A stretch of DNA of 64,000 nucleotides, taken from contig JASJCF010000005.1 in assembly GCA_030066265.1 (NCBI GenBank), forward strand, positions 414 to 64,413. The letters run 5' to 3'. Under the pieces are notes generated by a model. The model had not been told where the DNA came from, made no database searches, and was given only the letters and a program-made list of their open reading frames with translations. Below are positions 25,111 through 58,629 of the stretch, piece after piece. This DNA is from Acidimicrobiia bacterium. Its GTDB lineage: Bacteria > Actinomycetota > Acidimicrobiia > Spongiisociales > UBA5794. Every line of letters begins with the position of its first letter. Position 1 is the stretch's first letter. A program made the position numbers and the translations under genes.

Positions 25111-25126
25111 GATCGAGGGAGTATCG

Positions 25127-27809: not shown

Positions 27810-27853
27810 GCCCCAACCGTGTCAACGATCGGGTCGCAGATGAAGACCCCTGT

Positions 27854-27903
27854 GTTCTTGCGTAGCCGGTGCCCGGACGCGCGGGCACGCCCTACGCAAG
27901 AAC
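27854..27903. repeat. Palindromic intergenic element, copy B
   Basis: GTTCTTGCGTAG-ccggtgcccggacgcgcgggcacgcc-CTACGCAAGAAC. Confidence 0.9.
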
Positions 27904-27907
27904 GGAT

Positions 27908-28318: not shown

Positions 28319-28377
28319 AGCGCGCAGGCTAGGTGCGGAGAACGTCACCGAGCCCGCCCGTCGCTAGCATCGCCACC

Positions 28378-32364: not shown

Positions 32365-32486
32365 GGGAACGGGCGCGCCACGCACACCGAAGCGATGGTG
32401 TCCCGGGCCTGCACGGGGAGCGTGCGTCGCGTAGGTTGGCGCAGAAGGCGCCACCCGACGTTCGGCGCCATCGAAGGTAGAGGCAC

Positions 32487-32792
32487 ATGTACAAGCTCAC
32501 GCGCTCAGCCATGGTCGCCCAGGGCAAGGGCCCCGAGGCGGTTGCGTTCGCCACACAGGTGGCGGCGCACGTGACGGAACACCACACACCGGTCCAGGTC
32601 GGCGTCGAGATGGCTGGTGACCAGGGTCGCATTCATTGGTTCTCCGAGTACGAAAACGCTGCCGAGTGGGAACGAACCGGAATGGCTCTCGTAGCCGACG
32701 CGGAGTACCAGAACATGCTCGTCGCCGCGGGCGAGCTGTTCATTGCGGGAATGACACGGGACACGCTGGTTCGCCTGTTCCCGTCGGACTGA
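32487..32792 (+). CDS. Hypothetical protein (101 aa)
   Basis: High third-position GC (by eye) and an SD gaaggtagagg. No family recognised. Confidence 0.55.
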   Translation: MYKLTRSAMVAQGKGPEAVAFATQVAAHVTEHHTPVQVGVEMAGDQGRIHWFSEYENAAEWERTGMALVADAEYQNMLVAAGELFIAGMTRDTLVRLFPSD

Positions 32793-32894
32793 CGGCGCTC
32801 GACGACACGCCCAACCGAGAATCGGAGCCCCGCGCCACCGCTGCGGGGCTCCGGTGCGTTCCCGCTAAGACGCACACGACGGCAGGATCGCACC

Positions 32895-34328
32895 ATGACC
32901 GAACGCACCGACGCCAGAGACATCGTCTTGCTTCGGGCCGTCGACCAAGCGGCCATGTTGCGACGTCGGGAGATCTCAGCGACCGAGCTGCTGGAAGCCC
33001 ACCTCGATCAGATCGAACGAACGAACCCGGAACTCAACGCCATCGTCACGCTGACACCCGAGCGGGCGTTCGAGCTGGCTGCGGCTGCGGACGACCGCCT
33101 GTCCGAGGGTGGTTCGATTCCGCTCCTGACGGGCCTCCCGGTGGCACACAAGGATCTGCACGAAACGGCTGGGATCCGGACCACCTTCGGGTCGCGCGTC
33201 TACCGAAACTACGTACCCACCCGTAACGCGCTCATCGTTCAACGGCAGCTCGACGCTGGCGCGGTCACCGTGGGGAAGACCAACGCACCCGAGCACGGCG
33301 CTGGGAATCAGACCTTCAACGAGGTGTTCGGGGTGACGAGGAACCCATGGGACCTGTCCCTCACCCCTGGAGGATCATCCGGAGGTGCTGCGGTGGCCGT
33401 CGCAGCAGGCATGGTGTCGCTCGCCGACGGATCCGATCACGGCGCGTCCTTGCGCAATCCCGCTTCCTTCACCAATACGGTGGGCTTTCGACCATCCCCG
33501 GGCAGAATTCCCACCTGGCCGAGCAAGGACGTGTGGTGGACCCAGTCGGTGCACGGGCCGATGGCGCGCACCGTCGAAGACATCGCCTTGTTCATGGCCG
33601 CCACGGCGGGACCCGACCCGCGGATTCCCGTATCGATCGACCAGCCGGCATCGAGCTTCGCCACTCCCCTGCAAGCCGACTGGTCCGGTGTCACGCTGGC
33701 GTGGTCGGACGACCTCGGCGGACTCCCGGTCGAACCGGAGGTGACGACTGCGCTGCAGCCGGCGCGTGCGGCGCTCGAGGACGTCGGATTCACGGTGATC
33801 GACGCAGAACCTGACTTCAAAGGAGCCGAGGAGGTGTTCCAGGTCTTCCGCGGCCTGAGCTTCGTCCGGGAGTTCGGTGACGCTGTCCGGAGCGACCCGG
33901 ATAGCTACAAGGAGACGATCCACTGGAACACCGAGTACGGACGGTCGCTGACAGCAGCTGACATCGGCAAGGCCGCAGAGGCGCGCACTCGCCTGTTCAA
34001 TCGAGTCGCACGATTCCTGGATGAGCATCGATTCCTCGCGCTCCCCGCCTCTGCGGTTCCGCCCTTCTCCGTGGAGACCGAGTACCCGAGGGAAATCGCC
34101 GGGGTGAAGCAGGAGAACTACACCTCCTGGTTCGCATGCTGCTACTACATCTCAGCGATCGGACTGCCTGCCATCTCGGTCCCGGCTGGCTTCACCGACG
34201 ATGGGCTGCCCGTCGGGCTCCAGATCGTGGGCCGCCATCGCGCAGACCTGGACGTGCTCCGAGCAGCCTTCGTATTCCAGCAAGCGACGATGCTGTGGCA
34301 ACGTCACCCCCCTTCCGTTCTTGCGTAG
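32895..34328 (+). CDS. Amidase-signature (AS) family amidase
   Basis: GKTNAPEHGAGNQT...GGSSGGAAVAVAAGM...GSDHGASLRNPASF. The final codons plus the TAG are supplied by palindromic element C. Confidence 0.9.
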   Translation: MTERTDARDIVLLRAVDQAAMLRRREISATELLEAHLDQIERTNPELNAIVTLTPERAFELAAAADDRLSEGGSIPLLTGLPVAHKDLHETAGIRTTFGSRVYRNYVPTRNALIVQRQLDAGAVTVGKTNAPEHGAGNQTFNEVFGVTRNPWDLSLTPGGSSGGAAVAVAAGMVSLADGSDHGASLRNPASFTNTVGFRPSPGRIPTWPSKDVWWTQSVHGPMARTVEDIALFMAATAGPDPRIPVSIDQPASSFATPLQADWSGVTLAWSDDLGGLPVEPEVTTALQPARAALEDVGFTVIDAEPDFKGAEEVFQVFRGLSFVREFGDAVRSDPDSYKETIHWNTEYGRSLTAADIGKAAEARTRLFNRVARFLDEHRFLALPASAVPPFSVETEYPREIAGVKQENYTSWFACCYYISAIGLPAISVPAGFTDDGLPVGLQIVGRHRADLDVLRAAFVFQQATMLWQRHPPSVLA

Positions 34329-34366
34329 ACGGTGGTCGCGCGGCCGGGCACGGCCTACGCAAGAAC
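34317..34366. repeat. Palindromic intergenic element, copy C
   Basis: GTTCTTGCGTAG-acggtggtcgcgcggccgggcacggc-CTACGCAAGAAC. The arms extend to 16 nt (ttccgttcttgcgtag / ctacgcaagaacggaa). Confidence 0.9.
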
Positions 34367-34400
34367 GGAACAGGACGGCGTTCGGCGTCGTTACCGTTCC

Positions 34401-35243
34401 ATGACCATGAGCGACTCGACCATCACCACGTGCTACCGGCACCCGGATCGCGAGACCCGGCTGTCGTGTACGTCGTGTGGCCGCCCGATCTGCGTCGAAT
34501 GCAGTCACGACGCCTCGGTCGGTCAGCGGTGTCCTGAGTGCTCCGTTCCGGAGGGACGCAACCAGGTGGTCGCTGCCCGCCGGAGCGTCGGCCGCCCGAC
34601 GTTCCAGACCGCCCCGGTGTCCTTCTCGATCCTGGGTATCACGATCGCGATCTTCGCAGCGGGTCTCCTGTCGGCAGACATGGACACCTTCTTGTTCCGC
34701 AATCTCGCCCAGGCGAACTTCCTCGTCGCCGACGGCGAGGTCTACCGCATCTTCACGGCAGCCCTCCTCCATGGCGGCATCATGCACGTCTTCTTCAACA
34801 TGTACGCGCTGTACCTGTTCGGGCCTCGGCTCGAACAGCAGGTCGGGTCGCCTGCGTTTGCGTCCCTCTATGTCGCCGCCGCCGCGGCGGGTGGCATGGT
34901 CTCGTACGTCTTCGGGCCGATCAACCAGGTCTCGATCGGGGCTTCGGGTGCGATCTTCGGGCTCTTCGGCGCATGGATGTTCGTCGCCTGGAAGATGCGG
35001 GGGACTCCCGGTGGCCGGGCCATGTTCAACCAGCTCGGCGTCCTCCTTGCGATCAACCTGGCGCTCCCCCTGTTCGTGGGCGGAATCGACTGGCGCGCCC
35101 ACCTCGGTGGCCTCGGGGCAGGCGTCCTGATCGCCTGGCTGTGGTCGGTGTATGCGGTCGGCCAGCCCAATGCGAGGACGATCCGGACCATCATCGGTGC
35201 AGCGGTCGCGTTCGGTGCGCTGGTGATCACGATCTTCGTCTAG
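34401..35243 (+). CDS. Rhomboid-family intramembrane serine protease with N-terminal zinc ribbon
   Basis: CYRHPDRETRLSCTSCGRPICVEC...CPEC, then RIFTAALLHGGIMHVFFNM, GASGAIFGL and AHLGGLGAG. ATG 34401 chosen. Confidence 0.85.
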   Translation: MTMSDSTITTCYRHPDRETRLSCTSCGRPICVECSHDASVGQRCPECSVPEGRNQVVAARRSVGRPTFQTAPVSFSILGITIAIFAAGLLSADMDTFLFRNLAQANFLVADGEVYRIFTAALLHGGIMHVFFNMYALYLFGPRLEQQVGSPAFASLYVAAAAAGGMVSYVFGPINQVSIGASGAIFGLFGAWMFVAWKMRGTPGGRAMFNQLGVLLAINLALPLFVGGIDWRAHLGGLGAGVLIAWLWSVYAVGQPNARTIRTIIGAAVAFGALVITIFV

Positions 35244-35311
35244 CCGCACCTCTGCCCCTGCAAACGAGGGGCCCCGTCAGAAACCCCTTGCGATTCCGCT
35301 GACATCGGATA

Positions 35312-35671
35312 ATGTACAACCAAATGGTTGTAGATACCCTCCCCGACGAAGAGATCGACCTGCTGTTTCACGCGCTTGCCGACACCACGCGGCGTGACAT
35401 CGTCAAGCGAGCCATGGCCGGCGAACACTCGGTGTCCGGCCTGGCGAGGGGGTATGCCATGAGCTTCGCAGCGGTGCAGAAACACATCGCCGTGCTCGAG
35501 CGTGCTGGGCTGGTGACGAAGACGCAAAGGGGCCGAGAGCGCCTGGTTCGCACGGATATCGCCGCCATTGATCAAGCGTCCCGACTCCTCGACCAGTTCG
35601 AGGAGCTGTGGCGGAGGAGAGTCGACAAGATGGGCGAGATCCTCGCCCTGGAAACCGGAGCAGACACATGA
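35312..35671 (+). CDS. ArsR/SmtB-family transcriptional regulator
   Basis: LFHALADTTRRDIVKRAMAGEHSVSGLARGYAMSFAAVQKHIAVLERAGLV. An alternative start is the ATG at 35324. Confidence 0.85.
   Translation: MYNQMVVDTLPDEEIDLLFHALADTTRRDIVKRAMAGEHSVSGLARGYAMSFAAVQKHIAVLERAGLVTKTQRGRERLVRTDIAAIDQASRLLDQFEELWRRRVDKMGEILALETGADT
35315..35332. promoter_or_regulatory. Inverted repeat (putative ArsR operator) overlapping the arsR start
   Basis: TACAACCA-aa-TGGTTGTA, a perfect 8-2-8 palindrome beginning 3 nt into the annotated ArsR ORF. Confidence 0.45.
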
Positions 35672-36159
35672 CCGTCACCGCCATCCACAAGGACCCGGAG
35701 AACCTCACGATGTCGTTCACCGCCGAGTTCGACGCCACGCCGGAACGGGTGTGGAAGCTCTGGGAAGACCCTCGCCTGTTCGAGAAGTGGTGGGGTCCGC
35801 CGGAGTACCCGGCGACGGTGGTGACCCACGAATTCATCCCAGGGGGCAACGTGCGGTACTACATGACCGGACCAGACGGCGAGCAGTACCACGGCTGGTC
35901 CCGATTCATCGCAATCGATGCGCCGTCGTCGCTCGAATTCGGGGACGGGTTCTTGGACGACGACGGCAACGAGGTCGAAGGCATGCCGACCATGACCAGC
36001 CGGGTGGACATCACAGCCACCGGAAGCGGCACCCGGATGGTGATCACGACCACATTCCCGACCCTCGACGCCATGAACCAGCTCATCGAGATGGGCGCAG
36101 AGGAAGGCATGAAGGGCTCGCTGGGGCAGGTGGACGACCTCCTGGCGACCATGGCGTAG
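35668..36159 (+). CDS. SRPBCC/AHSA1 (Aha1-like) domain protein
   Basis: FDATPERVWKLWEDPRLFEKWWGPPEYPATV... . ATGA overlap with the ArsR gene. Confidence 0.85.
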   Translation: MTVTAIHKDPENLTMSFTAEFDATPERVWKLWEDPRLFEKWWGPPEYPATVVTHEFIPGGNVRYYMTGPDGEQYHGWSRFIAIDAPSSLEFGDGFLDDDGNEVEGMPTMTSRVDITATGSGTRMVITTTFPTLDAMNQLIEMGAEEGMKGSLGQVDDLLATMA

Positions 36160-36326
36160 CCGATACCGGCTGCGCCGAAGTCGCAGGTCTCGTTCTGCGA
36201 TACGAGGTCGGCAAGACACGAGGCAAGGACGAGAGCCCAGGCCTCCACGCTGCCTCCACGCTGCCTCCCCGATGGCCGCCGCCAGGAGGCCGTGGACCGT
36301 GCACCGCCCCCGGTACACTCCCGGCC

Positions 36327-37751
36327 GTGAGTCAGCACCCCCTGAGCGATCCACCAGTCGACCGGCCCGGTGAGGCCTGCGGGGTGTTCGGTGTTCGAGG
36401 CAACGATGTCGATGCCGCCCGGCTCACCTACTTCGGCTTGTTCGCGCTCCAGCATCGCGGTCAGGAGAGCGCAGGCATCGCTGTGAGTGATGGCGACAAC
36501 ATCACGGTCTACAAGGACATGGGGCTCGTGGCGCAGGTCTTCGATGAGACCGTGCTCGCCGGGCTCGGCGGCGATCTCGCAATCGGCCACACGCGATACT
36601 CGACGACCGGCTCCAATCGATGGGAGAACAGCCAACCGGTCTTCCGACATCTCGGCAGCAACGGCATCGCCCTCGCACACAACGGCAATCTCACCAACAC
36701 GGCGACGCTCGCAGCCGAGGTCGGACCGGTTGCTGCGACGACCGACTCCGAGCTCATGACCGAGGCGATCGCCGATGCCATGCAGTCGGGCGAGCTATCG
36801 CTCGACGAGGCCCTCACCACCGTCCTCCCGCGGTTCGAGGGCGCCTTCACTCTTGCGGTGATGGATTCGACGACGCTTGTCGGTGTTCGGGACCCACACG
36901 GATTCCGGCCGCTGTGTCTCGGGAACCTCGGTGACACCTGGGTCATTGCGTCCGAGACGGCTGCACTCGACATTCTCGGCGCAGACCTCGTGCGCGAAAT
37001 CGAACCGGGCGAAATGGTGATCGTCGACGACCACGGTCCCCGCTTCGTGAATCCCTTCCCCAAATCGAAGAGCTCTCTGTGCATCTTCGAGTTCGTGTAC
37101 TTCGCGCGCCCGGACTCGACCCTGCTGGGCCGGAATGTCCATACCAAACGCCAGCTCATGGGGCGGCTCCTCGCAGAGCAAGCGCCCGTCGAGGCCGACG
37201 TGGTGGTGCCCGTCCCCGAGTCGGGGATCCCGGCCGCACAGGGCTTCGCCGAGGTGAGCGGCGTCCCCTACTCGGACGGCCTCGTCAAGAACCGCTACGT
37301 GGGCCGAACCTTCATCCAGCCTGCCCAGGAGATGCGCGATCGGGGTGTGCGCATGAAGCTCAACGCCATGCCGAGCGTCATCGACGGCAAACGCGTGGTG
37401 CTCGTCGACGACTCCATCGTCCGAGGCTCGACGACCAAGCAACTCGTCGCCATGGTGCGAGAGGCCGGCGCAACCGAGGTGCACCTGCGCATCTCCTCGC
37501 CGCCGTACCGATGGCCCTGCTTCTACGGGATGGACACGGGAGACCGCTCCACCCTCCTGGCAGCCGATCGCTCCGTCGATGAGATCGCTTCCCATCTCGA
37601 CGTCGACTCCGTGGTGTATCTCACGCTCGAGAACCTCACAAGGGCCACGAGGTCGGATCCCGATGCCTTCTGCACGGCCTGCCTCACCGGCGCGTATCCC
37701 ACGGAGGTACCGCTCGCCGACAGCAAGTTCCTCCTCGAGCAGCCGTCATGA
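36327..37751 (+). CDS. purF: Amidophosphoribosyltransferase
   Basis: ...GEACGVFGV...LQHRGQESAGI...GHTRYSTTG...VPESG...DDSIVRGST. GTG 36327 gives a short propeptide before the Cys nucleophile, so the start is uncertain. Confidence 0.9.
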   Translation: MSQHPLSDPPVDRPGEACGVFGVRGNDVDAARLTYFGLFALQHRGQESAGIAVSDGDNITVYKDMGLVAQVFDETVLAGLGGDLAIGHTRYSTTGSNRWENSQPVFRHLGSNGIALAHNGNLTNTATLAAEVGPVAATTDSELMTEAIADAMQSGELSLDEALTTVLPRFEGAFTLAVMDSTTLVGVRDPHGFRPLCLGNLGDTWVIASETAALDILGADLVREIEPGEMVIVDDHGPRFVNPFPKSKSSLCIFEFVYFARPDSTLLGRNVHTKRQLMGRLLAEQAPVEADVVVPVPESGIPAAQGFAEVSGVPYSDGLVKNRYVGRTFIQPAQEMRDRGVRMKLNAMPSVIDGKRVVLVDDSIVRGSTTKQLVAMVREAGATEVHLRISSPPYRWPCFYGMDTGDRSTLLAADRSVDEIASHLDVDSVVYLTLENLTRATRSDPDAFCTACLTGAYPTEVPLADSKFLLEQPS

Positions 37752-38764
37752 CGAGCTACGAGCAAGCGGGGGTCAATCTCGATGCGGCCGATGAGCTCGT
37801 CGATCGCATCTCATGGCGCGTGACGTCGACCTGGACCGAGGACGTGGTTGGCGGCTTCGGAGGCTTCGCGGCTGGCCTCCAGATCCCGGCCGGCTTCGAC
37901 ATGCCGGTCCTCATGATGTCCACGGACGGTGTGGGGACGAAGGCCGATCTGGCTCGTCAGGCCAGGTTGGTGGAAGGCCTCGGCTACGACCTCGTCGCAA
38001 TGGTGGCGGATGACCTCGCCGCCGCCGGAGCTCAGCCCATTGCGATGACGGACTACATCGCCATCGGGAAGCTCGATGTCGATCTGGTCGAGACACTCGT
38101 CGAATCGATCACGGATGCCGCATCCGAGGCCGACATCGCGCTTCTCGGCGGCGAGACCGCCGAACATCCCGGCGTGATGCCGGCCGATCAGTTCGACCTC
38201 TCCGCCACGGCTCTCGGCATCGTCGAGATGGGGGACGAGGTGAATCCGGAGGAGGTCTCCTCGGGAGATGTCATCGTGGGCGTGAAGAGCCCGAATCTGC
38301 GATCGAACGGCTTCTCCCTGGTGCGAGCGATCGTTGCCCAGCAACTCCCCCTCGACGAGGACTTCCCGGACACGACGACACCGACCGCCGAGGTGCTCCT
38401 CGAACCGAGCATCGTGTATGCGCCGGCGATCGTGAACATGCTCGCAAGGGTCCATCCTCATGGCCTGGCACACATCACCGGGGGCGGTCTCCCCGGGAAC
38501 GTGATCCGCGTCCTACCCGATGGCCTTCGGGCGATCATCGAACGGGATAGGTGGGAGATCCCCCACGTCTTCAACGTCCTTCAGGCAACCGGGGGCGTGC
38601 CGCTCGGCGACATGTTCCGCACGTTCAACATGGGCATCGGATTCGTTGCGGTGGTTGGTGAGGACGACGTCGATGCGGCCCTGAAGGCGTTCGAGACCAG
38701 CGATCTCGAAGCTGCCGTCATCGGCCACATCACCGAGGGCGACTGGGGCGTTGAGATTCGATAG
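37748..38764 (+). CDS. purM: AIR synthase
   Basis: SYEQAGVNLDAAD...MSTDGVGTK...GGETAEHPG. ATGA overlap with purF. Confidence 0.95.
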   Translation: MTSYEQAGVNLDAADELVDRISWRVTSTWTEDVVGGFGGFAAGLQIPAGFDMPVLMMSTDGVGTKADLARQARLVEGLGYDLVAMVADDLAAAGAQPIAMTDYIAIGKLDVDLVETLVESITDAASEADIALLGGETAEHPGVMPADQFDLSATALGIVEMGDEVNPEEVSSGDVIVGVKSPNLRSNGFSLVRAIVAQQLPLDEDFPDTTTPTAEVLLEPSIVYAPAIVNMLARVHPHGLAHITGGGLPGNVIRVLPDGLRAIIERDRWEIPHVFNVLQATGGVPLGDMFRTFNMGIGFVAVVGEDDVDAALKAFETSDLEAAVIGHITEGDWGVEIR

Positions 38765-48750: not shown

Positions 48751-49098
48751 TCAGGCCGCCCTGAACACCATCCCGTAGTAGCTGTCGTACGGCTCCCTTC
48801 GCACGACATCCACTTCGCCGACGACGGCCATCCCGATCTCCGGCTCGTCGATTTCGAGTTGACCGAGCATCCGCATCCCGTTCTCGAGCTCCACGATGCC
48901 GATCCCGAGCGTGGCGACCTCGTATTGCGCGGGAAGGTTGTGGACTCGCGTCCAGGTGACGAGTGAGCCGGTCCTCGGAAGCGGCACGGTGTCGAACTCG
49001 AAGAAGTCGTTCTGCTTGCACTCCTTGCAGACCATGCGGAACGGGTAGTGGGACGCCCCACACCGCCGGCACACGTATGCGTAGATGTTGCGATCCAT
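48751..49098 (-). CDS. DUF35 Zn-ribbon/OB-fold protein
   Basis: MDRNIYAYVCRRCGASHYPFRMVCKECK... followed by an OB-fold region. The start shares one nucleotide with the stop of the thiolase-like gene (TGATG). Confidence 0.85.
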   Translation of the reverse strand: MDRNIYAYVCRRCGASHYPFRMVCKECKQNDFFEFDTVPLPRTGSLVTWTRVHNLPAQYEVATLGIGIVELENGMRMLGQLEIDEPEIGMAVVGEVDVVRREPYDSYYGMVFRAA

Positions 49099-50273
49099 CA
49101 CGACTCCCTCACGAAGGTGCAGCACACCACGTTGTTCCCGAATCCGCCGAAGTTGCAGGTGAACCCGACCCGAGCACCTTCCACCTGTCGGGTCCCGCCG
49201 TCACCACGCAGCTGCGTGACGATCTCCCAGGCTTGGGCAACACCGGTCGCTCCCACAGGGTGGCCTCGGCCCTTCAACCCGCCGCCCACGTTGATCGGGA
49301 TGGTCCCCCCAAGGGCGGTCTCACCCTTCTCGAGCGCCAGGTGCCCCTCGCCCCTCGGGAAGAACCCGACCTCTTCGCTCTCGACGATCTCGAGGATGGT
49401 GAAGGCGTCATGGAGCTCTGCAACGTCAACGTCCTGTGGCGTGATGCCTGCCATGGCGAAGGCATCGTTCGCCGCCTTGCGCACGGCGAGCAGATCGGTG
49501 GGTTCGTCGCGCTCGAACACGGCGTGTGTGTCGGTGGCCTGCCCGATGCCGCTGATGCGGACGAGGGGACGGCCCAGCTCACGAGCCTTCTCCTCCGACA
49601 CGAGCACGAGGGCTGCTCCGCCGTCGGAAACCGGGCATGCGTCGAAGAACCGCAGCGGTTCGGCCACGTAGGGGTTGTTCGTCATCGCCTCGGGCGAATC
49701 CAGGATTCCCTCGATGGTGATGGGTTGTTGCAGGTGCGCCCACTCATTTGCGAGCGCAGCGTTCTGGTTCTTCACCGACACCATCGCCAGATGCCGCTCG
49801 GTGACGCCGTATCGCTCCATGTACAACCGCGTGAACATGGCTGCGTGCGCCGGCAGCGTCACCCCGTAGATGTACTCAGCAAGGGGATGGGTGAGGGTCG
49901 CGACGAAGTCGGTGGCCTCGAGGTTGTTGACCTCGCGCATCCGTTCGGCGCCCGCGACGAGCACGACGTCGTCCATGCCGGAGGCCACCGCTTGGAATCC
50001 CGCCTTGATGGCTGCAGCTCCCGATGCCGGACCGTTCTCGATCGCAGCGGCACCGGCCGGCATGAGGCTCAGGCTGTCGACCACGGCGCTGGCGAGCGCA
50101 GTCTGGTGGTTCACTCGCGGCGAGCCCATGTTGGCCACGTAGACCTGGTCGACCTCGGTCACCCCGGCATCTCGAAGGGCCATCATCGATGCGTACGAAG
50201 CGATCTCGACCAGGGGATACTCGAGCCTCGTGAACGTGGTGATGCCGATTCCGGCCACATAGACGTCACGCAT
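49098..50273 (-). CDS. Thiolase-fold (SCP-x/Ltp-type) protein lacking the N-terminal nucleophile Cys
   Basis: MRDVYVAGIGITTF...IENGPASGAAAIKAG...VLVAGAERM...GGGLKGRGHPVGATG...TCNFGGFG. Pro occupies the usual (C)ASG Cys position. SD ggaggggagg precedes the start. Confidence 0.85.
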   Translation of the reverse strand: MRDVYVAGIGITTFTRLEYPLVEIASYASMMALRDAGVTEVDQVYVANMGSPRVNHQTALASAVVDSLSLMPAGAAAIENGPASGAAAIKAGFQAVASGMDDVVLVAGAERMREVNNLEATDFVATLTHPLAEYIYGVTLPAHAAMFTRLYMERYGVTERHLAMVSVKNQNAALANEWAHLQQPITIEGILDSPEAMTNNPYVAEPLRFFDACPVSDGGAALVLVSEEKARELGRPLVRISGIGQATDTHAVFERDEPTDLLAVRKAANDAFAMAGITPQDVDVAELHDAFTILEIVESEEVGFFPRGEGHLALEKGETALGGTIPINVGGGLKGRGHPVGATGVAQAWEIVTQLRGDGGTRQVEGARVGFTCNFGGFGNNVVCCTFVRES

Positions 50274-51024
50274 CGGCCGACCTCCCCTCCATCTCCCAAC
50301 GTTGAGCCATGAGCGATGTCCCCGTCGGGTCGTACATCGATCGCGTCGCCGCAAGCGGATCCAACGGCGGTGTCGGCGGATCCGATGGCGGCAGGATCGC
50401 GTCCATTGCCTTGTCCAGCAGGTCCGCGGGCACGGGGCGACGGCCGACGACGAGCGTGGCGCGAGCAGCGTCGAACAGCTCCCGGGTGAGTGCCCACGAT
50501 GGCACACCGCCGAGCTCGTGGGGAGTGTCGAAGCGCTTCTCGAGCCGATACTCGATCATCCAACGCCGGAACCCGATCGGCGATTCGGCGACGATGAGGA
50601 CCTCATCGTGTCCGAGCGTGTCGATGTGGTACTCCATCTTGGCCGCAAACGCATGGGCACCGACACGCAGGCCCCGACGCAGCGCCAGCGTGTGGAGTGA
50701 CATCCCGAGGTCCGGGGTGACCTGCCTACCGTTGACGATGGCCGCCAGCTCGCCGTCGATCTGGACGGCGAGCACGTACTGGTCCTGATAGCGGTGGCGA
50801 TAGTGCGCCAGCAGCTCGGAGTAGACGCGGGCGGCCACCACGTCGTAGTAGTCGCGCTCGACATGGAGCAAGGGCTCCACGTGTCTCAGCAGGTCCGGGA
50901 TCTCATCACGATCGACCTGCCTCACCACCGCCGCTTCGCCGCTGGCGAGCATCATGTACTTGGGCTCGTACGGCTTCATCGGGGTGTCGACCGGCCGCAG
51001 GATCTTCTCTAGGTCGACGGACAT
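50266..51024 (-). CDS. Hypothetical protein (252 aa), operon member
   Basis: ATG 51024 with SD aaggagaagg. Its end overlaps the thiolase-like start by 8 nt. No family recognised. Confidence 0.6.
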   Translation of the reverse strand: MSVDLEKILRPVDTPMKPYEPKYMMLASGEAAVVRQVDRDEIPDLLRHVEPLLHVERDYYDVVAARVYSELLAHYRHRYQDQYVLAVQIDGELAAIVNGRQVTPDLGMSLHTLALRRGLRVGAHAFAAKMEYHIDTLGHDEVLIVAESPIGFRRWMIEYRLEKRFDTPHELGGVPSWALTRELFDAARATLVVGRRPVPADLLDKAMDAILPPSDPPTPPLDPLAATRSMYDPTGTSLMAQRWEMEGRSADA

Positions 51025-51049
51025 CGGGCTCCTTCTCCTTCGGTGGTCA

Positions 51050-53431
51050 TCAGGTCGGCGACGCGGAAACTGCCTGCGCAACCTTCTCCTGGGTGATCGG
51101 CATGGACGTGATGCGGACGCCGAGCGCATCGAAGACGGCGTTGGCGATCGCCGGAGCGGCGCCGATCATCGTGTGTTCCCCCACGCCTCTGGCGCCGAAC
51201 GGGCCATCCGGCTGGGGAACTTCGATGATGATGGGGATCATCTCGTCGGGGATGTCGAACGCCGTGGGGATCTTGTAGTCGGTGAAGTTCGGGTTCAGCA
51301 GCCGGCCGTCTTCGTCGAAGCGCATGTCCTCGTACAGCACGGTCGCCAGCCCCTGTACGAGACCGCCGGTGATCTGCCCTCTCACGAGGTCCGGGTTGAT
51401 CGCCTTCCCGGCGTCGACGGCGAGCGCCGCCTTGCGCACGAAGATGCGTCCGGTGTGCGTGTCGATCTCGATCACCATGCCGCATGCGCCAACCGTGTAG
51501 TGCACGTTGGGATGGCCGCCCTGACCGGTCTCCGGATCGCTGTTCGCGTTGGTGAACTCGGGCATGAACTTCCCACTGGCGACGATCGGGCCGCCGCGCC
51601 ACGTGCCGTCCTCGGTTTGGATCCCGTCGATCACGAAGTCCCGCAGGGGCTTGGCGAAGTCGGGGTCGGTGGTGCACTTCACCTGCTCGTCGGCCAGATA
51701 CAACGTGTCGTCCTCGTAGCCGTACACCTGGTGGATGACGTCGAAGATCTTCTCGCGCGCCTCCACCGCGGCCCTCTCGACCGCCAGGCCCGAGCTCCAG
51801 GTGACATGCGACGCCACGGTCTGCCACTCGTACGGATTGCGGTCGGTGTCCGGCGTCTCCACGCGGACCTTCTCGACAGGGAGACCGAGCACCTCGGCGG
51901 CGATCTGCGCCATCACGGTGAGGTATCCCTGCCCGAGCTCCATGCCCGAGACGCTGACGTTGACGCTGCCATCCTCGTTGAACTTCAAGAACGATGCCGA
52001 TGAGGCATTCGGCGGCATGGCGGGCGCCTTCCAGAACAGCGCGATGCCCTTTCCGATCACGGTGTTCGGATCGTCGGATTGCTCCTCCACGCCCCAGTCG
52101 ATCGCCGACGCCGTCTCATCGATGGCGGGGAGCAGACCGGACGGATTCATGTGGGCGCCGTAGGACAGCTCGTCGCCCTCGACGATGGCGTTCTTCCGCC
52201 GGAAGTCGACCGGATCCATGCCGATCGCCGCGGCGACCCGATCCAGGTGCGATTCGAGACCGAAATGGAACTCCGAATAGCCAAATCCCCGATAGGGGCC
52301 GCCAGGCGGCAGGTTGGTGTACACGCACAACGAGTCGTTGCGGATGTTCGGCACCCGGTACGGCCCGGTGGCTGAGAGACCCGCTGCATTGACCACGTTG
52401 GCGCCGTACTCGACGTAGGCACCGGCGTCCCAATAGAGCGTGTGCTCGACGGCGGTGATGGTGCCGTCGTTCATCACGCCCACCTTGAGTTCGGCAACCA
52501 CACCCTGGCGCTGGTAGGTGTTGTAGAACTCCTGCTCCCGGGTGAAGCGAAGCTTGACGGGATGCCCCTTCACCGCTGTCGCCATCGCCGCACCGATGAC
52601 CTCCATGGTCACCCCTGCCTTGCCGCCGAAGCCACCGCCCACATAGGGGGTGATCACGCGCACGTCCTTGTGGCTGAAGCCCAGCGGAGCGAGCGCCTCG
52701 GCGAAGAGGTGGCGCTGGGTGTGCGGCGATTGCGATGCCGTCCACACGGTCAGCCGGCCTGCGTGATCGAGCTTGCCGACGGTGACGTGCGGCTCGATGG
52801 CGCAGTGGGCGTACCGCGGAACCCGGTAGGTGTCGGCCAGCACGTAGTCGGCTTCGGCGAAGGCGCGCTCGGTGTCGCCCTTGCGGATCTTGCGCCAGTG
52901 AGCGATGTTCGTGCCGGCCTTGGGGAAGAACCAGGGCACATGGCTGTATTCGCCGAGATCCGGATGGATCAGTGGAGCTCCGTCGGCCACTGCCTCCTTC
53001 GGGTCGAGGAGCGCCTCGAGGACCTCGTACTCGACCTCGACCAGCTTGGCGGCCTGCACTGCCTGGCGATGGGTCCTGGCGATGACGCCTGCGACCTGCT
53101 CACCGACGAAGCGGACATGGCCCTGGGCGAAGATGTACCGGTCCCCCATGTACATACCGAAGTTGTACGGGAAGTCCTGGCCGGTGACGACCTTGACGAC
53201 ACCGGGAGCGTCCTCGGCTTTCGAGGTGTCGATGGAGACGATGCGTGCGTAGGCGTGAGGGCTCTCGACGACCGCACCGTGGAGCAGGCCCGGACCGAAG
53301 TCGAGGTCGTCGACGAACTGGGCGGCGCCACTGATCTTGTCGATCCCATCGATGCGCACGGCGGACGTTCCCACGGCATTGAGCTCGCCGTTGCGTTCGG
53401 CCTCCGCCTCGAACGGGTGGGTGGTCGTCAT
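51050..53431 (-). CDS. Molybdopterin-binding large subunit of a xanthine-dehydrogenase-family hydroxylase
   Basis: VGTSAVRIDGIDKISGAAQFVDDL...GGGFGGK... in 793 aa. ATGA overlap with the 2Fe-2S subunit gene. No CODH-type AYRCSFR motif was seen. Confidence 0.9.
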   Translation of the reverse strand: MTTTHPFEAEAERNGELNAVGTSAVRIDGIDKISGAAQFVDDLDFGPGLLHGAVVESPHAYARIVSIDTSKAEDAPGVVKVVTGQDFPYNFGMYMGDRYIFAQGHVRFVGEQVAGVIARTHRQAVQAAKLVEVEYEVLEALLDPKEAVADGAPLIHPDLGEYSHVPWFFPKAGTNIAHWRKIRKGDTERAFAEADYVLADTYRVPRYAHCAIEPHVTVGKLDHAGRLTVWTASQSPHTQRHLFAEALAPLGFSHKDVRVITPYVGGGFGGKAGVTMEVIGAAMATAVKGHPVKLRFTREQEFYNTYQRQGVVAELKVGVMNDGTITAVEHTLYWDAGAYVEYGANVVNAAGLSATGPYRVPNIRNDSLCVYTNLPPGGPYRGFGYSEFHFGLESHLDRVAAAIGMDPVDFRRKNAIVEGDELSYGAHMNPSGLLPAIDETASAIDWGVEEQSDDPNTVIGKGIALFWKAPAMPPNASSASFLKFNEDGSVNVSVSGMELGQGYLTVMAQIAAEVLGLPVEKVRVETPDTDRNPYEWQTVASHVTWSSGLAVERAAVEAREKIFDVIHQVYGYEDDTLYLADEQVKCTTDPDFAKPLRDFVIDGIQTEDGTWRGGPIVASGKFMPEFTNANSDPETGQGGHPNVHYTVGACGMVIEIDTHTGRIFVRKAALAVDAGKAINPDLVRGQITGGLVQGLATVLYEDMRFDEDGRLLNPNFTDYKIPTAFDIPDEMIPIIIEVPQPDGPFGARGVGEHTMIGAAPAIANAVFDALGVRITSMPITQEKVAQAVSASPT

Positions 53432-53898
53432 GGCGTCACCTCGCCGGAGCGCTGTCCCACCGCCAGCACGGCATCGATGATGGGCTCGTATCCCGTGCAG
53501 CGGCACAGGTTCCCGGACAGGGCTTCCTGGACATCGTGGCGGTCCGGGTTCGGGTTCTCGTCGAGGAGCTCCGTGGCGGACAGCACGATGCCCGGGGCAC
53601 AGAATCCACATTGGAAGGAGTTCAGGGTGATGAAGAGCTCCTGCAGGTCGCTCAGCCGGTCAGCACCGATTCCCTCGACCGTCGTGACTTCGTGGCCCTC
53701 GACCTCCACGGCCAAGACGAGACAGCTCCGCACGGTGCGTCTGTCGAGCAACACGGTGCATGAGCCGCAATCGCCCCGTTCGCAACCGATCTTCGGGCTC
53801 TTGACACCGATCTGCTCGCGAAGGACGTCGAGCAGGACATCTGCCGGCGCCACATCGAGATCCCACGACTCGCCGTTGACGGTGATCGTCACCTGCAT
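53428..53898 (-). CDS. [2Fe-2S]-binding small subunit of the Mo hydroxylase
   Basis: GCERGDCGSCTVLLD...FQCGFCAPG...NLCRCTGY. Confidence 0.9.
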   Translation of the reverse strand: MQVTITVNGESWDLDVAPADVLLDVLREQIGVKSPKIGCERGDCGSCTVLLDRRTVRSCLVLAVEVEGHEVTTVEGIGADRLSDLQELFITLNSFQCGFCAPGIVLSATELLDENPNPDRHDVQEALSGNLCRCTGYEPIIDAVLAVGQRSGEVTP

Positions 53899-53909: not shown

Positions 53910-54794
53910 TCAGATCAGTCGAGTTCGATACTCGGGCCCGTCACCGTTCCTCCGCTGATCGGCTGCCACCAGCCCACGGGCGAGCATGACCTCGCACATG
54001 TGGGCCCGGTACTCCGCTGTCGCCCGCAAGTCGTTGATGGGACTGATCTCGCTCCGAACCATGGCCACTGCCTCGGCGATCACGTCTTCGGTGGGCGCTC
54101 TGCCCCGGATGGCGTCCTCGACTGCGTGGGCACGAACGGGGGTGGGCGCCACGGCACCGAAGGCGATCCGGTAGTCGTGGGCGTCGTCGACGACGATGGC
54201 GACCGCCGCCTGGGCGAGGTCCTCGCCTCCGTATCGCATGAGCTTGACGTAGCACCCCCCGTGTGTGGGCAGCTCCATGGTGAGGTGCGTGACGATCTCG
54301 TCCTCTCGCCTCGCCGTCTGTCGGAGGCCGACGAACCACGCTTCGATCGGCACCGAGCGGAACCCCTCGGGTCCCACGAGATGCACGTGCGCGTCGTAGG
54401 CCAACAGCACGGGACCGGCGTCGCACGAGGGCACAGCCGAGCAGATGTTGCCGACCACCGTCGCTCGATTGCGGATGCCGGGGGAAGCAACCGTCTCCGC
54501 CGCCTCGGACAGGAGCGGCGCATGCTCTGCGACGACGGACGACTCCATCAGGTCCGTGAATGTCACGAGGGATCCGACCGTCATCGTCCGGTCCGCAACA
54601 GCGAGGTCGCGAAGGCCGTCGATCGCCTTGATGTCGACAACGAGATCAGGGTGCACGGCATCGTCCCTCAGCCAAGCAACCAGGTCCGTCCCCCCAGCGA
54701 GCACCTGAGCGGAGCCGGAACAGTCCGCCAGGGCCCGGGTTGCCTCTTCGAGCGTGTTCGGCCTCACGTACTCGAAGTCGTGCGGGATCACCAC
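53910..54794 (-). CDS. FAD-binding medium subunit of the Mo hydroxylase
   Basis: FEYVRPNTLEEA...VLAGGTDLV... (CoxM/XdhB-like). GTG start with SD GAGGAGG. Confidence 0.85.
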   Translation of the reverse strand: MVIPHDFEYVRPNTLEEATRALADCSGSAQVLAGGTDLVAWLRDDAVHPDLVVDIKAIDGLRDLAVADRTMTVGSLVTFTDLMESSVVAEHAPLLSEAAETVASPGIRNRATVVGNICSAVPSCDAGPVLLAYDAHVHLVGPEGFRSVPIEAWFVGLRQTARREDEIVTHLTMELPTHGGCYVKLMRYGGEDLAQAAVAIVVDDAHDYRIAFGAVAPTPVRAHAVEDAIRGRAPTEDVIAEAVAMVRSEISPINDLRATAEYRAHMCEVMLARGLVAADQRRNGDGPEYRTRLI

Positions 54795-54887: not shown

Positions 54888-56294
54888 CTACCGCACCGCC
54901 TCGGCGAGCGCCTCGATGCCATCGACGAACACCTCCATCGGCGCCTCGACCAGACCGGCACCGACCATGCCGGTGCCCGGGATCCGCCCGGCGATCCCCG
55001 TGTTGATCTGAGGCTGAATGCCCGTGCGTACCACGAGGCCGGCATCGATGCCGACAGGGGTGCCGCGGAACTCGAGCATCGGGATCTGATAGGCCGGGTG
55101 CTCGGCCAGCGTGATCTCGTACATCTGCAGGGTTCGCCGCACGGCACCCGTGGCGGTCCCGCCGACGAAGCCCACGATGGCTGGCGCAGCAGCCATGGCG
55201 AAACCCCCGAGGCCGACGGTCTCGGTGATGGTGGAATCACCGATGTCGGGGCTTGCGTCATCGGCGCTGAATCCTCCGAGATAAAGGCCTTCGACACGTG
55301 GTGCCGGCGCGGTGAACCAGCGGTTGCCGGTTCCCGAGAGGCGGATCCCGAACTCCGTGCCGTTGCGCGCCATGACGGTGACGAGGCTCGAGGCGTCGAC
55401 ACCGGAGGCGGCGTCGGAGCCGAGCTTGCCGGCCGCCATGACGAGATTCAGCATGAAGTGATCGTTGCCATCGATGAAGTCGAATACCGCCCTTCGCTGG
55501 TCCGAGGGGGAATCGACGCCGTCGATCAGCGCCGATCCGATCTGGCGCAGGAAGAGGGAGGTGACGGCGCGGTTCCGGTTGTGTCCGTCGTCGCCCATCT
55601 GCAACGCTTGGGCGATCAGGGATTGGAGATCCACCGGTCCGCGGGTGCGCAGGACCGCGCCGAGCACCGGTCCCAGCACCGAGTCCATCCAACGCAGACG
55701 ATCGATGACCTCTGGGGCGAACGCGCCGTACCGCAGTACCTTGCCGAGCCCTTCGTTGAGGGTGGAGTACGCGACACCGTCGCCTGCATCGTCGTGGACG
55801 ACCGCAACCGGCATCGATGGCGAGATGACCCCGGCCATCGGGCCGACCGCGCTGTGGTGATGGCATGGCGAGAGTTCGATGTCACCGCGCGCCGCCAACG
55901 TCTCGGCTTGCTCCGGGCTCTCGGCAAGACCCTCGTAGAGCATGGCACCGATCAGCGCGCCCCGGAGCGGGCCACTCGCGTCGGCCCACTCCACCGGCGG
56001 CCCGGCATGCAGGAACGTTCGCTCGGCCATATCCGGCAGACACTCGCCTGCGGTGCCGATATCGACGAGCATCGGGCGAACGCCGAGCATGCGATCCACC
56101 GCGAGGCGGTTCGCTGCGAATGTCTTCCCGGCTGCCGCAAGAGTGGGGAGCGACGCCGCCGAGCCCGACACCGGCGGTCTCCAGTCGACGCGATACACCG
56201 TGGCACCCTGTTCCTCGACAGCAGCTGCGAGCAGGTCGGCCCCGGCTGCCACCACCGTGGGTTCGGAGTCGAGCAAACGGTCGAGCGATGTCAT
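54888..56294 (-). CDS. DUF1116 protein (E. coli YlbE/AllG-like)
   Basis: ...FLHAGPP...LSPCHHHSAVGPMAGVISPSMPV...NEGLGKVLRYG... . The start shares one nucleotide with the fdrA-like stop. Confidence 0.8.
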   Translation of the reverse strand: MTSLDRLLDSEPTVVAAGADLLAAAVEEQGATVYRVDWRPPVSGSAASLPTLAAAGKTFAANRLAVDRMLGVRPMLVDIGTAGECLPDMAERTFLHAGPPVEWADASGPLRGALIGAMLYEGLAESPEQAETLAARGDIELSPCHHHSAVGPMAGVISPSMPVAVVHDDAGDGVAYSTLNEGLGKVLRYGAFAPEVIDRLRWMDSVLGPVLGAVLRTRGPVDLQSLIAQALQMGDDGHNRNRAVTSLFLRQIGSALIDGVDSPSDQRRAVFDFIDGNDHFMLNLVMAAGKLGSDAASGVDASSLVTVMARNGTEFGIRLSGTGNRWFTAPAPRVEGLYLGGFSADDASPDIGDSTITETVGLGGFAMAAAPAIVGFVGGTATGAVRRTLQMYEITLAEHPAYQIPMLEFRGTPVGIDAGLVVRTGIQPQINTGIAGRIPGTGMVGAGLVEAPMEVFVDGIEALAEAVR

Positions 56295-57721
56295 CAGCGT
56301 TCCTCCATTCGCGCAGCGAGCCCGGCGGCGTGGCGAGCTGCTGCCGCGTTCGACACGTAGACAGCCGCTCCGGCGCTGTTGAGCGTCGCCGCCTGCCGTG
56401 CGAGCCCCTGGGGGTCACCCTTCGTCCCACACAGGGAGGCGATGACGGCGACGCCCGCATCGACGACCTGCTCGATCGCGGGCGCCAACTCGCCAGCCGG
56501 ATCGGGATTGGCACCGTGCCCCAGCACCACATCCAGAAGAGCGATTCCCACGGTCTCGTCACGTGCGGCTTCCGCCAGACGATCGAGGCGCACCGTCTGG
56601 TCGATCATGGGATGGGCGCGGCCTCTGGTGTAGCGGTCGTCCCCGTAGTCGACGAAGACGTGTCCCGACGACCCTTCGCTCGTGCCCACGGTTGCGCCGA
56701 GGGCGCGTTCCACGACGAACCGGGCATCGTCGCGCAAGGTTCCGCCCGAGAACAGGCCGCGAATGGTGCCCGGTCGACGATCGGACCGGGACGCGGGCCA
56801 CGCCGAATACGCTCGGGGCTCGCGGCCCAGCACTGCCAGAACCTCACCGGACCCGTCCTCGAGCGTCGTGTCGCCCATGAAGACGACGACCACCGGCGTG
56901 TCGCAGGCAGCTGCGGCGTCCCGCACCTCGGCGGCAACCGCCTCTGCCGGAGGTTTGGAGATCACCACGATCACGTCCGTTGCCGGATCCGCATCGAGGG
57001 CATGCATTGCTTGTTTCGTCGAACGTCCCCCGACCTCGCCGGAGAGATCCCGGCTCCCCGTGCCGATGGCATGACGGACACCGACACCGGCGTCGTCGAG
57101 GAGGCAGCACAACTGCTGGATGCCCGTGCCGGACGCACCAACCATGCTGACGGGGCCCGGCAGCACCGCATTCGCAAAGCCGAGGCCCACGCCGTTGATG
57201 ATCGTCGTGCCACAGTCGGGCCCCATGACGAGCAACCCGCGTTGGGCAGCTCTCTTCTTGAGCGCCATCTCATGCTCGATGGAGACGTTGTCGCTGAAGA
57301 CCATCACGTGCAGGCCGAGTTCCAAGGCCTCAGCGGCCTCTGCGTAGGCATGCTCGCCTGGCATCGAGATCAAGGCGACGTCGGCATCCCGAGCGGCATG
57401 ACCGATGGTCCTGGGGTCCGGAGCGTCCCAGCCACCCTCGGGAGACGGGCGCGCTACGAGCGCCTGTGCCAGGACCTCGCGTGCGACCTCGAGCGCAGCC
57501 TCGTCCTCGGCTCGGATCGCAACCAGGAGATCGTCGGCGCCCCAGTCGTCCGCTTCGGCGGTGTCGAACCCCATGTCGGCCAGGAGATCGAGATTCAGCT
57601 CGGTTGCCATGGCGACCAGTGCGGCGTGAACGCCTGCGACGTCGCCGACGGCCCGGCTGGCCTGCATCAATCGCACGGAGTCGTGGTAGCGGCCCCGATG
57701 TATCTGGATGCTGCTGATCAT
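56294..57721 (-). CDS. FdrA-like (succinyl-CoA-synthetase-alpha-like) protein
   Basis: IHRGRYHDSVRLMQ...LISMPGEHA...VMVFSDNV...GPDCGTTIING...GASGTG. ATGA overlap with the DUF2877 gene. Confidence 0.8.
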   Translation of the reverse strand: MISSIQIHRGRYHDSVRLMQASRAVGDVAGVHAALVAMATELNLDLLADMGFDTAEADDWGADDLLVAIRAEDEAALEVAREVLAQALVARPSPEGGWDAPDPRTIGHAARDADVALISMPGEHAYAEAAEALELGLHVMVFSDNVSIEHEMALKKRAAQRGLLVMGPDCGTTIINGVGLGFANAVLPGPVSMVGASGTGIQQLCCLLDDAGVGVRHAIGTGSRDLSGEVGGRSTKQAMHALDADPATDVIVVISKPPAEAVAAEVRDAAAACDTPVVVVFMGDTTLEDGSGEVLAVLGREPRAYSAWPASRSDRRPGTIRGLFSGGTLRDDARFVVERALGATVGTSEGSSGHVFVDYGDDRYTRGRAHPMIDQTVRLDRLAEAARDETVGIALLDVVLGHGANPDPAGELAPAIEQVVDAGVAVIASLCGTKGDPQGLARQAATLNSAGAAVYVSNAAAARHAAGLAARMEER

Positions 57722-58629
57722 CGGTGCACTCCTCCTGTGCGGCGGGAGACACGCTCGACGACGGTGCGGAGGCCGAGCACCATGCCTGCTGCCAACGCAG
57801 GCCCGGAGGAATGCCCGATGTCGGTCACCGAGCGGTGCGTCGCTTCCACATCGCCGCGTCCGCACACGGCGCGCAGGAACGCTCCCGCTGGTGCGGCGAC
57901 TTCGCCGCGAACGGCATGCCCGAGCAGCGAGGCCGACAGTGAAGTCGTCCTACGCGAGGCGATCGCACTGAGCGGCGCTGCGATCGAACCGAGGAGCGGT
58001 GCGGCCTCCAGGTCGCCGGTGGCGGGGCCGACGATCCGCACCGATGCCAGCATGCCTGCCACGTAGTCGTCGGCTTCGGGTGTGAGGCCGCTGCCTCGTC
58101 CGAGGATGCGATCCGCCGCCGCCACGACCGCATCAGCTCGCCCGGCCTCGATGGCCGAGGCGACCTCACAGCCAGTGACGCCCTCGATGGAATCCGGGAG
58201 AGCCTCGATGCGCTCGGCGACCTCGGCGGCGGCTGGCGTACCCACGCTCGGCGATGGATCCCACCATCGGGTCACAGCGACCGGCATCCGGGCATCGAGC
58301 GTGCCCTGACCCACCGTCACCAACGAGCCTGGAGGCAGCAACACACCCACCTCGGTTCGCAACCTCGGCGGGATGATCTCGATGCCATTGGGAAGCCGGG
58401 GACCGCCCCTGTCGGTGATCACCATGACGCCGTCTGACGTCTCCACCCATGCCGTGTGGCCGGAGCCGCCGAGAACGCATCCCTCTCGCTTCGACCCGGT
58501 GATGATCGCACGGATCCCGAGGCTGGCGACAGCGCGGATCGCCGACCGTGGAGGCCGCATTGTTGTGCCGACCCCGGGCGCGGTCACGAAATCAGCCCAG
58601 ATCGACGATCGCAGCGACGGGACCACCAC
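57718..58629 (-). CDS. DUF2877 protein (E. coli YlbF/AllH-like)
   Basis: ...[19 protein letters not shown]...[12 protein letters not shown]. The start is either GTG 58629 (overlapping the upstream gene by 38 nt) or ATG 58560. Confidence 0.7.

Follow-up and report, generated by a model that had tools for sequence, protein, structure and literature searches.

Which reaction do three genes of the AllFGH carbamoyltransferase family serve when they stand behind a barbiturase-type gene? This question is raised by a 64 kb stretch of DNA (the window) from a metagenome-assembled genome of the Acidimicrobiia with a guanine-cytosine content of about 65%. In the window, an allH-, an allF- and an allG-like gene (54888-58629) lie directly downstream of a gene encoding a ring-opening amidohydrolase. 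A first-pass annotation had pointed out this trio, and the open reading frames and Pfam families match its description at the exact coordinates. Among the bacterial routes of pyrimidine degradation, the oxidative pathway is defined least well, and its last step is represented in the searched literature only by a 'ureidomalonase' activity. We consider it rather probable that the trio encodes an AllFGH-type carbamoyltransferase which was recruited to this pathway and which, by analogy with the enzyme of E. coli, would convert ureidomalonate and phosphate to carbamoyl phosphate and malonamate.

The trio and the barbiturase-type gene in front of it

The gene preceding the trio matches PF09663/TIGR02714 over its full length (503.8 bits). 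A comparison of its product with all solved structures revealed the best match to the barbiturase 5hwe (532 bits, 69.6% identity), while cyanuric acid hydrolases reached at most 307 bits and the identity to the cyanuric acid hydrolase TrzD is 47.4%. The protein also shows the residues typical of barbiturases, namely SNG, which is SRG in cyanuric acid hydrolases, VQTKTPLL and ASCSSG; the loss of the arginine in the barbiturase subgroup has been noted before (PMC4051656). Judged by its sequence, the upstream gene is thus of the barbiturase type and nearer to barbiturase than to the cyanuric acid hydrolases. The name cyanuric acid hydrolase, which is given to it by NCBIfam, was rejected on the basis of identity and motifs. 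The NCBIfam equivalog NF052395 'cyanuric acid amidohydrolase' is passed by the window barbiturase (458 bits, cut-off 360) and also by the Embleya barbiturase (locus L081, 14935-16095), with a range of 458 to 486 bits within the barbiturase clade. The model therefore looks over-inclusive, and barbiturases are likely annotated as cyanuric acid hydrolases. A non-coding gap of 215 nucleotides separates the barbiturase gene from ilvD, which was dropped as a member of the system as it is kept upstream of barbiturase in no related locus; no other conserved gene was found upstream of barbiturase in the related loci either.

The trio starts 7-35 nucleotides past the end of the barbiturase-type gene and is transcribed in the order allH, allF, allG. 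The open reading frame of allF spans 57865-56294; however, its real start is the ATG at 57721. The stop codon of allH overlaps the start codon of allF (ATGA), the stop codon of allF overlaps the start codon of allG (TGATG), and a Shine-Dalgarno sequence (GGAGGA) is located upstream of both the allF and the allG start. The three genes thus adjoin one another with their start and stop codons overlapping, an arrangement shared by 54 related loci. According to the Pfam matches (Table 1), all three subunits of the AllFGH family, the FdrA-type protein, the DUF1116 protein AllG and the DUF2877 protein AllH, are encoded. A comparison with the proteins of E. coli MG1655 revealed 39% identity for AllF (residues 8-469), 45% for AllG (61-467), in which the motif CHH..AVGPM is retained, and 30% for AllH, restricted to the 115 amino acids of the C-terminal domain. 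In the Protein Data Bank, the allF-like protein matches FdrA (3dmy) and the allG-like protein matches a DUF1116 protein (3clq), and no solved structure of AllH or of the whole complex was found there.

In E. coli, allF, allG and allH (formerly fdrA, ylbE and ylbF) are all required for the formation of oxamate (Kim and Kim 2024, Applied and Environmental Microbiology; PMC11326118), and the three genes were put forward as candidates as early as 2012 (PMC3364942). The first-pass annotation had referred to such a report of an oxamate carbamoyltransferase, and the paper does exist. For the condensation of carbamoyl phosphate and oxamate, run at pH 9, the purified complex needs only Mg2+, and the next gene in the same operon, allK, encodes a carbamate kinase (PMC11326118). 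The window thus shares with E. coli the same three families side by side, and a carbamate kinase gene is also found in relatives of the window cluster. The proposed chemistry would be the same as well, the phosphorolysis of H2N-CO-NH-CO-R to carbamoyl phosphate and an amide. However, the gene order differs (allH-allF-allG in the window, allF-allG-allH-allK in E. coli), the genes are accompanied by barbiturase and a molybdenum (Mo) hydroxylase instead of allantoin genes, and the E. coli operon holds allK, a kinase gene that the window cluster lacks. The predicted substrate, ureidomalonate (H2N-CO-NH-CO-CH2-COO-), is one CH2 longer than oxalurate (H2N-CO-NH-CO-COO-), which bears out the earlier description of the two as one-carbon homologues. 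The context in the window argues for an acyl-urea substrate other than oxalurate.

Table 1. Genes of the barbiturase operon, in order of transcription, and the amidase gene outside it; positions refer to the 64 kb window.
Feature	Position	Strand	Family matches and remarks
Barbiturase-type ring-opening amidohydrolase, 365 aa	58592..59689	(-)	PF09663, full-length, E 2.4e-142
allH-like subunit (DUF2877)	57718..58629	(-)	PF11392, E 5.7e-19, full domain; likely start GTG 58587 or ATG 58560
allF/fdrA-like subunit, 476 aa, succinyl-CoA synthetase alpha-like fold	56294..57721	(-)	PF00549 Ligase_CoA and PF02629 CoA_binding
allG-like subunit (DUF1116), 468 aa	54888..56294	(-)	PF06545, E 6.7e-92
Flavin adenine dinucleotide (FAD) subunit, xanthine-dehydrogenase-family Mo-hydroxylase	53910..54794	(-)	PF00941 and PF03450; kept after allG in group-1 loci
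2Fe-2S subunit, Mo-hydroxylase	53428..53898	(-)	PF01799 and PF00111
Molybdopterin subunit, Mo-hydroxylase	51050..53431	(-)	PF02738, PF20256, PF01315
252-aa protein, predicted GNAT fold	50266..51024	(-)	No Pfam or NCBIfam match; kept beside Mo-hydroxylase in 29 loci
Thiolase-like protein	49098..50273	(-)	PF22691 and PF00108; kept in 27 loci
DUF35/OB-fold partner of the thiolase-like protein, last operon gene	48751..49125	(-)	PF01796, E 2.3e-9; kept in 27 loci
Amidase-signature enzyme outside the operon	32793..34328	(+)	NCBIfam PRK07486, 461.8 bits (cut-off 465)

Linkage to barbiturase and carbamate kinase across genomes

When one genome per species was scanned with the window barbiturase, 80 loci were obtained whose barbiturases are 72-92% identical to it. 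Most of them belong to the Acidimicrobiia, others to Haliangium, Egibacteraceae, Euzebyaceae and Nitriliruptorales. The linkage was counted for the 58 loci in which the sequence extends at least 4.5 kb downstream of barbiturase, and allF and allG follow directly behind barbiturase in 54 of these species-level loci; loci with shorter downstream sequence agree as far as they reach. The exceptions are L038, which has no trio, L030 and L039, which have allH only, and L068, in which allH lies at the contig end. Using a hidden Markov model of orthologues, allH was found in 71 of 83 sources. The linkage is kept despite rearrangements: the order is bar-allF-allG in Haliangium (bar being the barbiturase gene), an inserted ATP-binding cassette (ABC) transporter separates bar from the trio in the Egibacteraceae, and the Mo-hydroxylase block is shifted upstream in L048 and L051. 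Wider homology searches with the barbiturase yielded relatives of at least 86% identity among the matches listed (the best 120), and the actinomycete cases described below come from mislabelled actinomycete chromosomes in a plasmid collection and from selected look-ups. A neighbour-joining tree of AllG places the barbiturase-linked proteins, including those of Embleya, Nonomuraea, Haliangium, the Egibacteraceae and the window, in one clade, apart from the E. coli, TrzD-linked, pAPEC and Peptoclostridium proteins. The linkage of the trio to barbiturase is far above chance and crosses phyla; the co-occurrence that the first-pass annotation had named as a check of its own proposal is strongly positive, both in the 54 of 58 loci and in the actinomycete islands.

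Of the 80 related loci, 10 have a carbamate kinase gene; it is mostly placed between bar and allH, and lies directly between these two genes in L067, L069, L077, L078 and L080. In actinomycetes, it is located immediately upstream of barbiturase in Embleya (302 bits in NCBIfam, cut-off 266), in Nocardioides anomalus, in five Nocardioides-type contigs and in one Pseudonocardiales contig. The trio of Embleya is found in the same island 18 kb from barbiturase, beside a Mo-hydroxylase and a permease. A metagenome scan centred on Embleya AllG revealed a recurrent unit, in which allH-allF-allG diverge from the genes for a RutG-like permease, a Mo-hydroxylase and CoxG. An amidase-signature gene comes after this unit in L124, L125 and L127, together with convergent genes for HyuB, a coenzyme A (CoA) transferase, a carboxyltransferase, carbamate kinase and barbiturase; trio, amidase, barbiturase, kinase and malonate genes are thereby contained within 12 kb. 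L172 tiles with L095-L099, and the combined order reads allG, allF and allH on one side and, pointing the opposite way, permease, Xdh, CoxG, amidase, HyuA, HyuB, NmrA, carbamate kinase and barbiturase on the other. The permeases beside the trio match RutG/uracil permease best and not xanthine permease. No transcarbamylase of the ornithine (OTC) or aspartate (ATC) type is listed in the actinomycete islands, which leaves the trio as their only candidate for producing carbamoyl phosphate.

An apparent kinase-barbiturase fusion (P0348, 490 aa, L093 4240-6299) was rejected, since a separate kinase fragment lies just upstream and the fusion is probably a frameshift or an assembly artefact. HyuA and HyuB, members of the ATP-dependent hydantoinase/oxoprolinase family with caprolactamase as the nearest relative, recur in the barbiturase islands of several lineages (L092, L094-L099, L081, L091 and group-2 loci such as L067 20355-21083).

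The cluster of Rhodococcus qingshengii (L091), whose barbiturase is 99% identical to 5hwe, offers a comparison with a described pathway. In Rhodococcus erythropolis, uracil dehydrogenase, barbiturase and ureidomalonase lead to urea and malonate, according to PMC3758960, which cites Soong et al. 2001/2002. In R. qingshengii, a gene for uracil phosphoribosyltransferase precedes barbiturase, and an amidase-signature gene follows it directly, with its start overlapping the barbiturase stop. This amidase fits the published ureidomalonase that yields urea and malonate. The island further contains two RutG-like permeases, a Mo-hydroxylase with CoxG, HyuA and a CoA-transferase/carboxyltransferase pair; neither the trio nor a carbamate kinase gene is present within 10 kb of barbiturase. 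The two clusters resemble each other in the barbiturase, for which the Rhodococcus-type enzyme is the closest solved structure, and in a hydroxylase of the xanthine dehydrogenase family. However, the window has the trio in the slot of the Rhodococcus amidase and lacks the Rhodococcus accessory genes: in tblastn searches of the window and the 80 loci, neither the CoA-transferase/carboxyltransferase pair nor a uracil permease of the Rhodococcus type was found, with the exception of one permease. In the slot behind barbiturase, some clusters thus have an amidase and others the trio, which is the pattern expected of alternative ways of handling one intermediate.

The Mo-hydroxylases of the two clusters are not orthologous. 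The molybdopterin subunit of the window shows 27% identity to that of Rhodococcus and, over the set of Rhodococcus, Embleya and group-2 enzymes, 27-30%, while those share 63-71% identity with one another. Although not of the Rhodococcus type, the window enzyme is presumed to form the barbiturate ring in this lineage. The R. qingshengii subunit (L091 17345-19867) reaches 1400 bits on the NCBIfam model 'aerobic carbon-monoxide dehydrogenase large subunit, group 5'. Its context makes it more likely that this protein is a uracil/thymine dehydrogenase than a carbon monoxide dehydrogenase.

A predicted phosphorolytic route and its alternatives

The proposed route would start with the opening of barbiturate to ureidomalonate by barbiturase, a reaction that is reported to be reversible (Soong et al. 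2002), so that a later step which pulls it forward would be plausible. AllH-AllF-AllG would then move the terminal carbamoyl group to phosphate, thereby producing carbamoyl phosphate and malonamate. This step is proposed by analogy with the conversion of oxalurate and phosphate to carbamoyl phosphate and oxamate, from which the predicted substrate, products and phosphate dependence are derived. Carbamate kinase, which is encoded in the clusters of relatives, could use the carbamoyl phosphate to form ATP, NH3 and CO2; alternatively, carbamoyl phosphate might enter arginine or pyrimidine synthesis. Malonamate would be deamidated to malonate by an amidase, for which the window holds one candidate (Table 1); in other genomes, an amidase-signature enzyme (Nocardioides-type islands) or a CN-hydrolase (Embleya and a second Acidimicrobiales group) could take this role. 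In actinomycetes, the CoA-transferase and a carboxyltransferase-type decarboxylase might finally convert malonate to acetyl-CoA.

The first-pass annotation had proposed that the trio acts instead of a hydrolytic ureidomalonase. One part of this claim holds, as no amidase-signature gene is present in the operon and none was found within 10 kb of barbiturase in the 80 related loci. The word 'instead', however, is too strong, since an amidase of the same subfamily is encoded 20 kb away and others occur in trio islands. The amidase of the window, which lies among purine biosynthesis genes, is 50% identical to the amidase of the Nocardioides-type islands and 38% identical to the barbiturase-adjacent amidase of Rhodococcus, and PRK07486 is the best NCBIfam subfamily for all three. 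By sequence, it may be a malonamidase or a parallel ureidomalonase; both enzymes cut the same malonyl-N bond, and the amidase could thus take the step that follows the trio or work alongside it. For the amidases of the actinomycete trio islands, a function after the trio, as malonamidase, is more likely.

Several observations weigh against a recruited carbamoyltransferase. A hydrolytic route may coexist with the trio, given the PRK07486-type amidases in the window and in the trio islands. The E. coli enzyme was assayed in the synthetic direction only (PMC11326118), and oxalurate and oxamate are the only assayed substrates of the family. The FdrA-like protein reaches 400 bits on the NCBIfam model PRK06091 FdrA and thereby stays below its cut-off of 433. 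In five loci with bar-allF-allG, L054 and L060 (Haliangium), L032, L049 and L055, allH was not detected beside these genes. The 80 loci are close relatives, and the 54 of 58 are therefore not 54 independent events. The GNAT-fold, thiolase-like and DUF35 genes of the operon have no place in the proposed scheme. Furthermore, tblastn searches with three carbamate kinases found no such gene in the 64 kb window, a caveat that the first-pass annotation had raised itself; the relatives answer it with the kinase genes in 10 of the 80 loci and in the actinomycete islands.

It was also considered that the trio makes carbamoyl phosphate from a later ureide such as allophanate, a biuret-like or another N-carbamoyl compound, after an amidase has split ureidomalonate. 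We regard this as unlikely, even though actinomycete islands hold amidases as well as the trio, in L124, L125 and L127 with one after allG in the same operon, and even though related genes are found in fitting places elsewhere: allFGHK lie beside biuret and triuret hydrolases in nitrifier genomes (PMC12625717), the trio of Peptoclostridium lies beside a cysteine hydrolase, and the substrate in the TrzD operon described below could be biuret or allophanate and not carboxybiuret. In the window and its 54 relatives, however, no gene for another enzyme separates barbiturase from the trio, and an amidase gene is missing within 10 kb. Urea carboxylase is absent from the operon, and urea and malonate, the known products of ureidomalonase (PMC3758960), hold no acyl-urea bond for phosphorolysis. 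The E. coli complex, which works on carbamoyl phosphate and oxamate with Mg2+ and without CoA or ATP (PMC11326118), is at odds with a different suggestion, according to which the trio acts as a ureidomalonase, either hydrolytic or dependent on CoA, that sets urea free and hands malonyl-CoA or malonyl phosphate to the GNAT, thiolase and DUF35 proteins. This suggestion draws on the CoA_binding and Ligase_CoA domains retained in FdrA, on the three proteins of CoA-ester-type families that are always present in the group-1 operon, and on the lack of the CoA-transferase/carboxyltransferase pair of the actinomycete islands in that operon. However, the GNAT/thiolase/DUF35 block travels with the Mo-hydroxylase and not with the trio (L048, L051) and is absent from those clusters of group 2, Haliangium and the actinomycetes in which bar and the trio stay together, and carbamate kinase sits between bar and allH in relatives; a ureidomalonase of this kind is therefore quite improbable.

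Only a very small chance is given to an ordinary oxamate carbamoyltransferase for purine and allantoin breakdown, with the Mo-hydroxylase as xanthine dehydrogenase and a merely co-located barbiturase. The subunits of the Mo-hydroxylase do match xanthine dehydrogenase models of NCBIfam best, all below the cut-offs, and oxalurate and oxamate are the substrates of the one family member that has been assayed. However, uricase, allantoinase, allantoate amidohydrolase and ureidoglycolate dehydrogenase, which would be expected from an allB/allC/allD/allE context, were found neither in the operon nor in its conserved neighbourhood. The adjacency to barbiturase is kept across rearrangements and phyla, the adjoining permeases resemble RutG/uracil permease, the islands hold malonate-handling genes, and the barbiturase-linked AllG clade is separate from E. 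coli AllG.

If the recruitment of the trio as a ureidomalonate carbamoyltransferase is true, many Acidimicrobiia and actinomycetes and some myxobacteria would end the oxidative pyrimidine pathway by phosphorolysis, gaining one ATP per ring via carbamate kinase and freeing both ureido nitrogens without urease. A known enzyme family would gain a predicted new substrate in an undescribed, energy-conserving branch, and the same logic probably extends to the degradation of cyanuric acid.

The TrzD operon, further trio contexts and other genes of the window

A second ring-opening amidohydrolase of the same family was found together with the trio on plasmids of Proteobacteria. TrzD, 100% identical to PDB 5t13, is encoded on pSR8 of Aminobacter sp. 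SR38 (L085 6052-19413) and on the IncF plasmid pKqs_SB610_3 of Klebsiella (L084), in an operon with genes for a hypothetical protein of 454 aa, fdrA, DUF1116, trzD, carbamate kinase, an amidohydrolase, a BMP/ABC transporter and DUF2877; the Klebsiella copy has atzF nearby. The likeness to the window thus consists of the amidohydrolase beside fdrA and DUF1116, together with carbamate kinase and DUF2877. However, TrzD belongs to another amidohydrolase clade (47% identity) and acts on cyanuric acid, the gene order differs, and the plasmid operon includes the BMP/ABC transporter. The product of cyanuric acid hydrolase is carboxybiuret (H2N-CO-NH-CO-NH-COO-), which is isosteric with ureidomalonate, with NH in place of CH2. 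By analogy, the TrzD operon points to a branch in the degradation of cyanuric acid that proceeds by phosphorolysis.

There is about an even chance that AllFGH complexes are general 'acyl-urea phosphorylases', which partner ring-opening amidohydrolases of the Toblerone fold. Barbiturase would supply them with ureidomalonate and TrzD with carboxybiuret, and the ureido carbon and nitrogen would be converted to carbamoyl phosphate and, by carbamate kinase, to ATP. If so, two undescribed activities would be added, a ureidomalonate (malonamate) and a carboxybiuret (allophanate) carbamoyltransferase, and the oxidative pyrimidine and cyanuric acid pathways would have energy-conserving, urease-independent variants. 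The AllFGH family would gain a second and, from the TrzD operon, probably a third substrate, and an unrecognised branch would be added to cyanuric acid/s-triazine degradation. Several annotations would also be corrected, namely 'acyl-CoA synthetase FdrA', 'cyanuric acid amidohydrolase' and, for the Mo-hydroxylase of the cluster, 'CO dehydrogenase'. In the literature searched, neither barbiturase nor TrzD was found to be linked to FdrA, DUF1116, DUF2877 or carbamate kinase, although surveys of the amidohydrolase family may mention such a link, and no function of the trio in the TrzD operon is reported there.

Further contexts of the trio are known from other bacteria. In Peptoclostridium acidaminophilum (L087), genes for PucR, a permease, a cysteine hydrolase, a second permease, DUF2877, FdrA, DUF1116 and carbamate kinase follow one another, and the permeases belong to the NCS2 family. 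The trio together with carbamate kinase appears to be a module that serves several pathways of N-heterocycle degradation. It resembles the arginine deiminase-type reaction modules (Barba et al. 2013, PMC4016543), in which a ureido compound is likewise converted to carbamoyl phosphate and, via carbamate kinase, to ATP. However, those modules use transcarbamylases of the OTC/ATC fold on N-carbamoyl amines, whereas the unrelated three-subunit enzyme of the AllFGH type would act on an N-carbamoyl amide. On ColV plasmids of E. coli such as pAPEC-O2-ColV (L086), the trio and carbamate kinase are located beside a cytosine permease.

The GNAT-fold, thiolase-like and DUF35 genes and the Mo-hydroxylase block (48751-53431) move as one unit in L048 and L051. 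The 252-aa protein is identical to QNJ71_01060, which is annotated as hypothetical protein. It was examined as a hidden amidase and rejected: its AlphaFold2 model is weak, with a predicted local distance difference test (pLDDT) score of 65, and the top Foldseek matches are all GNAT acyltransferases (E 2e-6), with no likeness to amidases. In L055, the position of allH is occupied by an alpha/beta hydrolase gene. The amidase gene of the window is preceded by an open reading frame of 103 aa with a weak NIPSNAP match (32481-32792). The purine biosynthesis genes purA, purD, purB, purC, purL and purM form a run on the plus strand (22337-38764), and a protein of 1465 aa with nine bacterial surface Ig-like domains is encoded on the minus strand (2377-6774). 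Elsewhere in the window, lgt and genes for a P-type ATPase, CopC/CopD and an ABC transporter are found.

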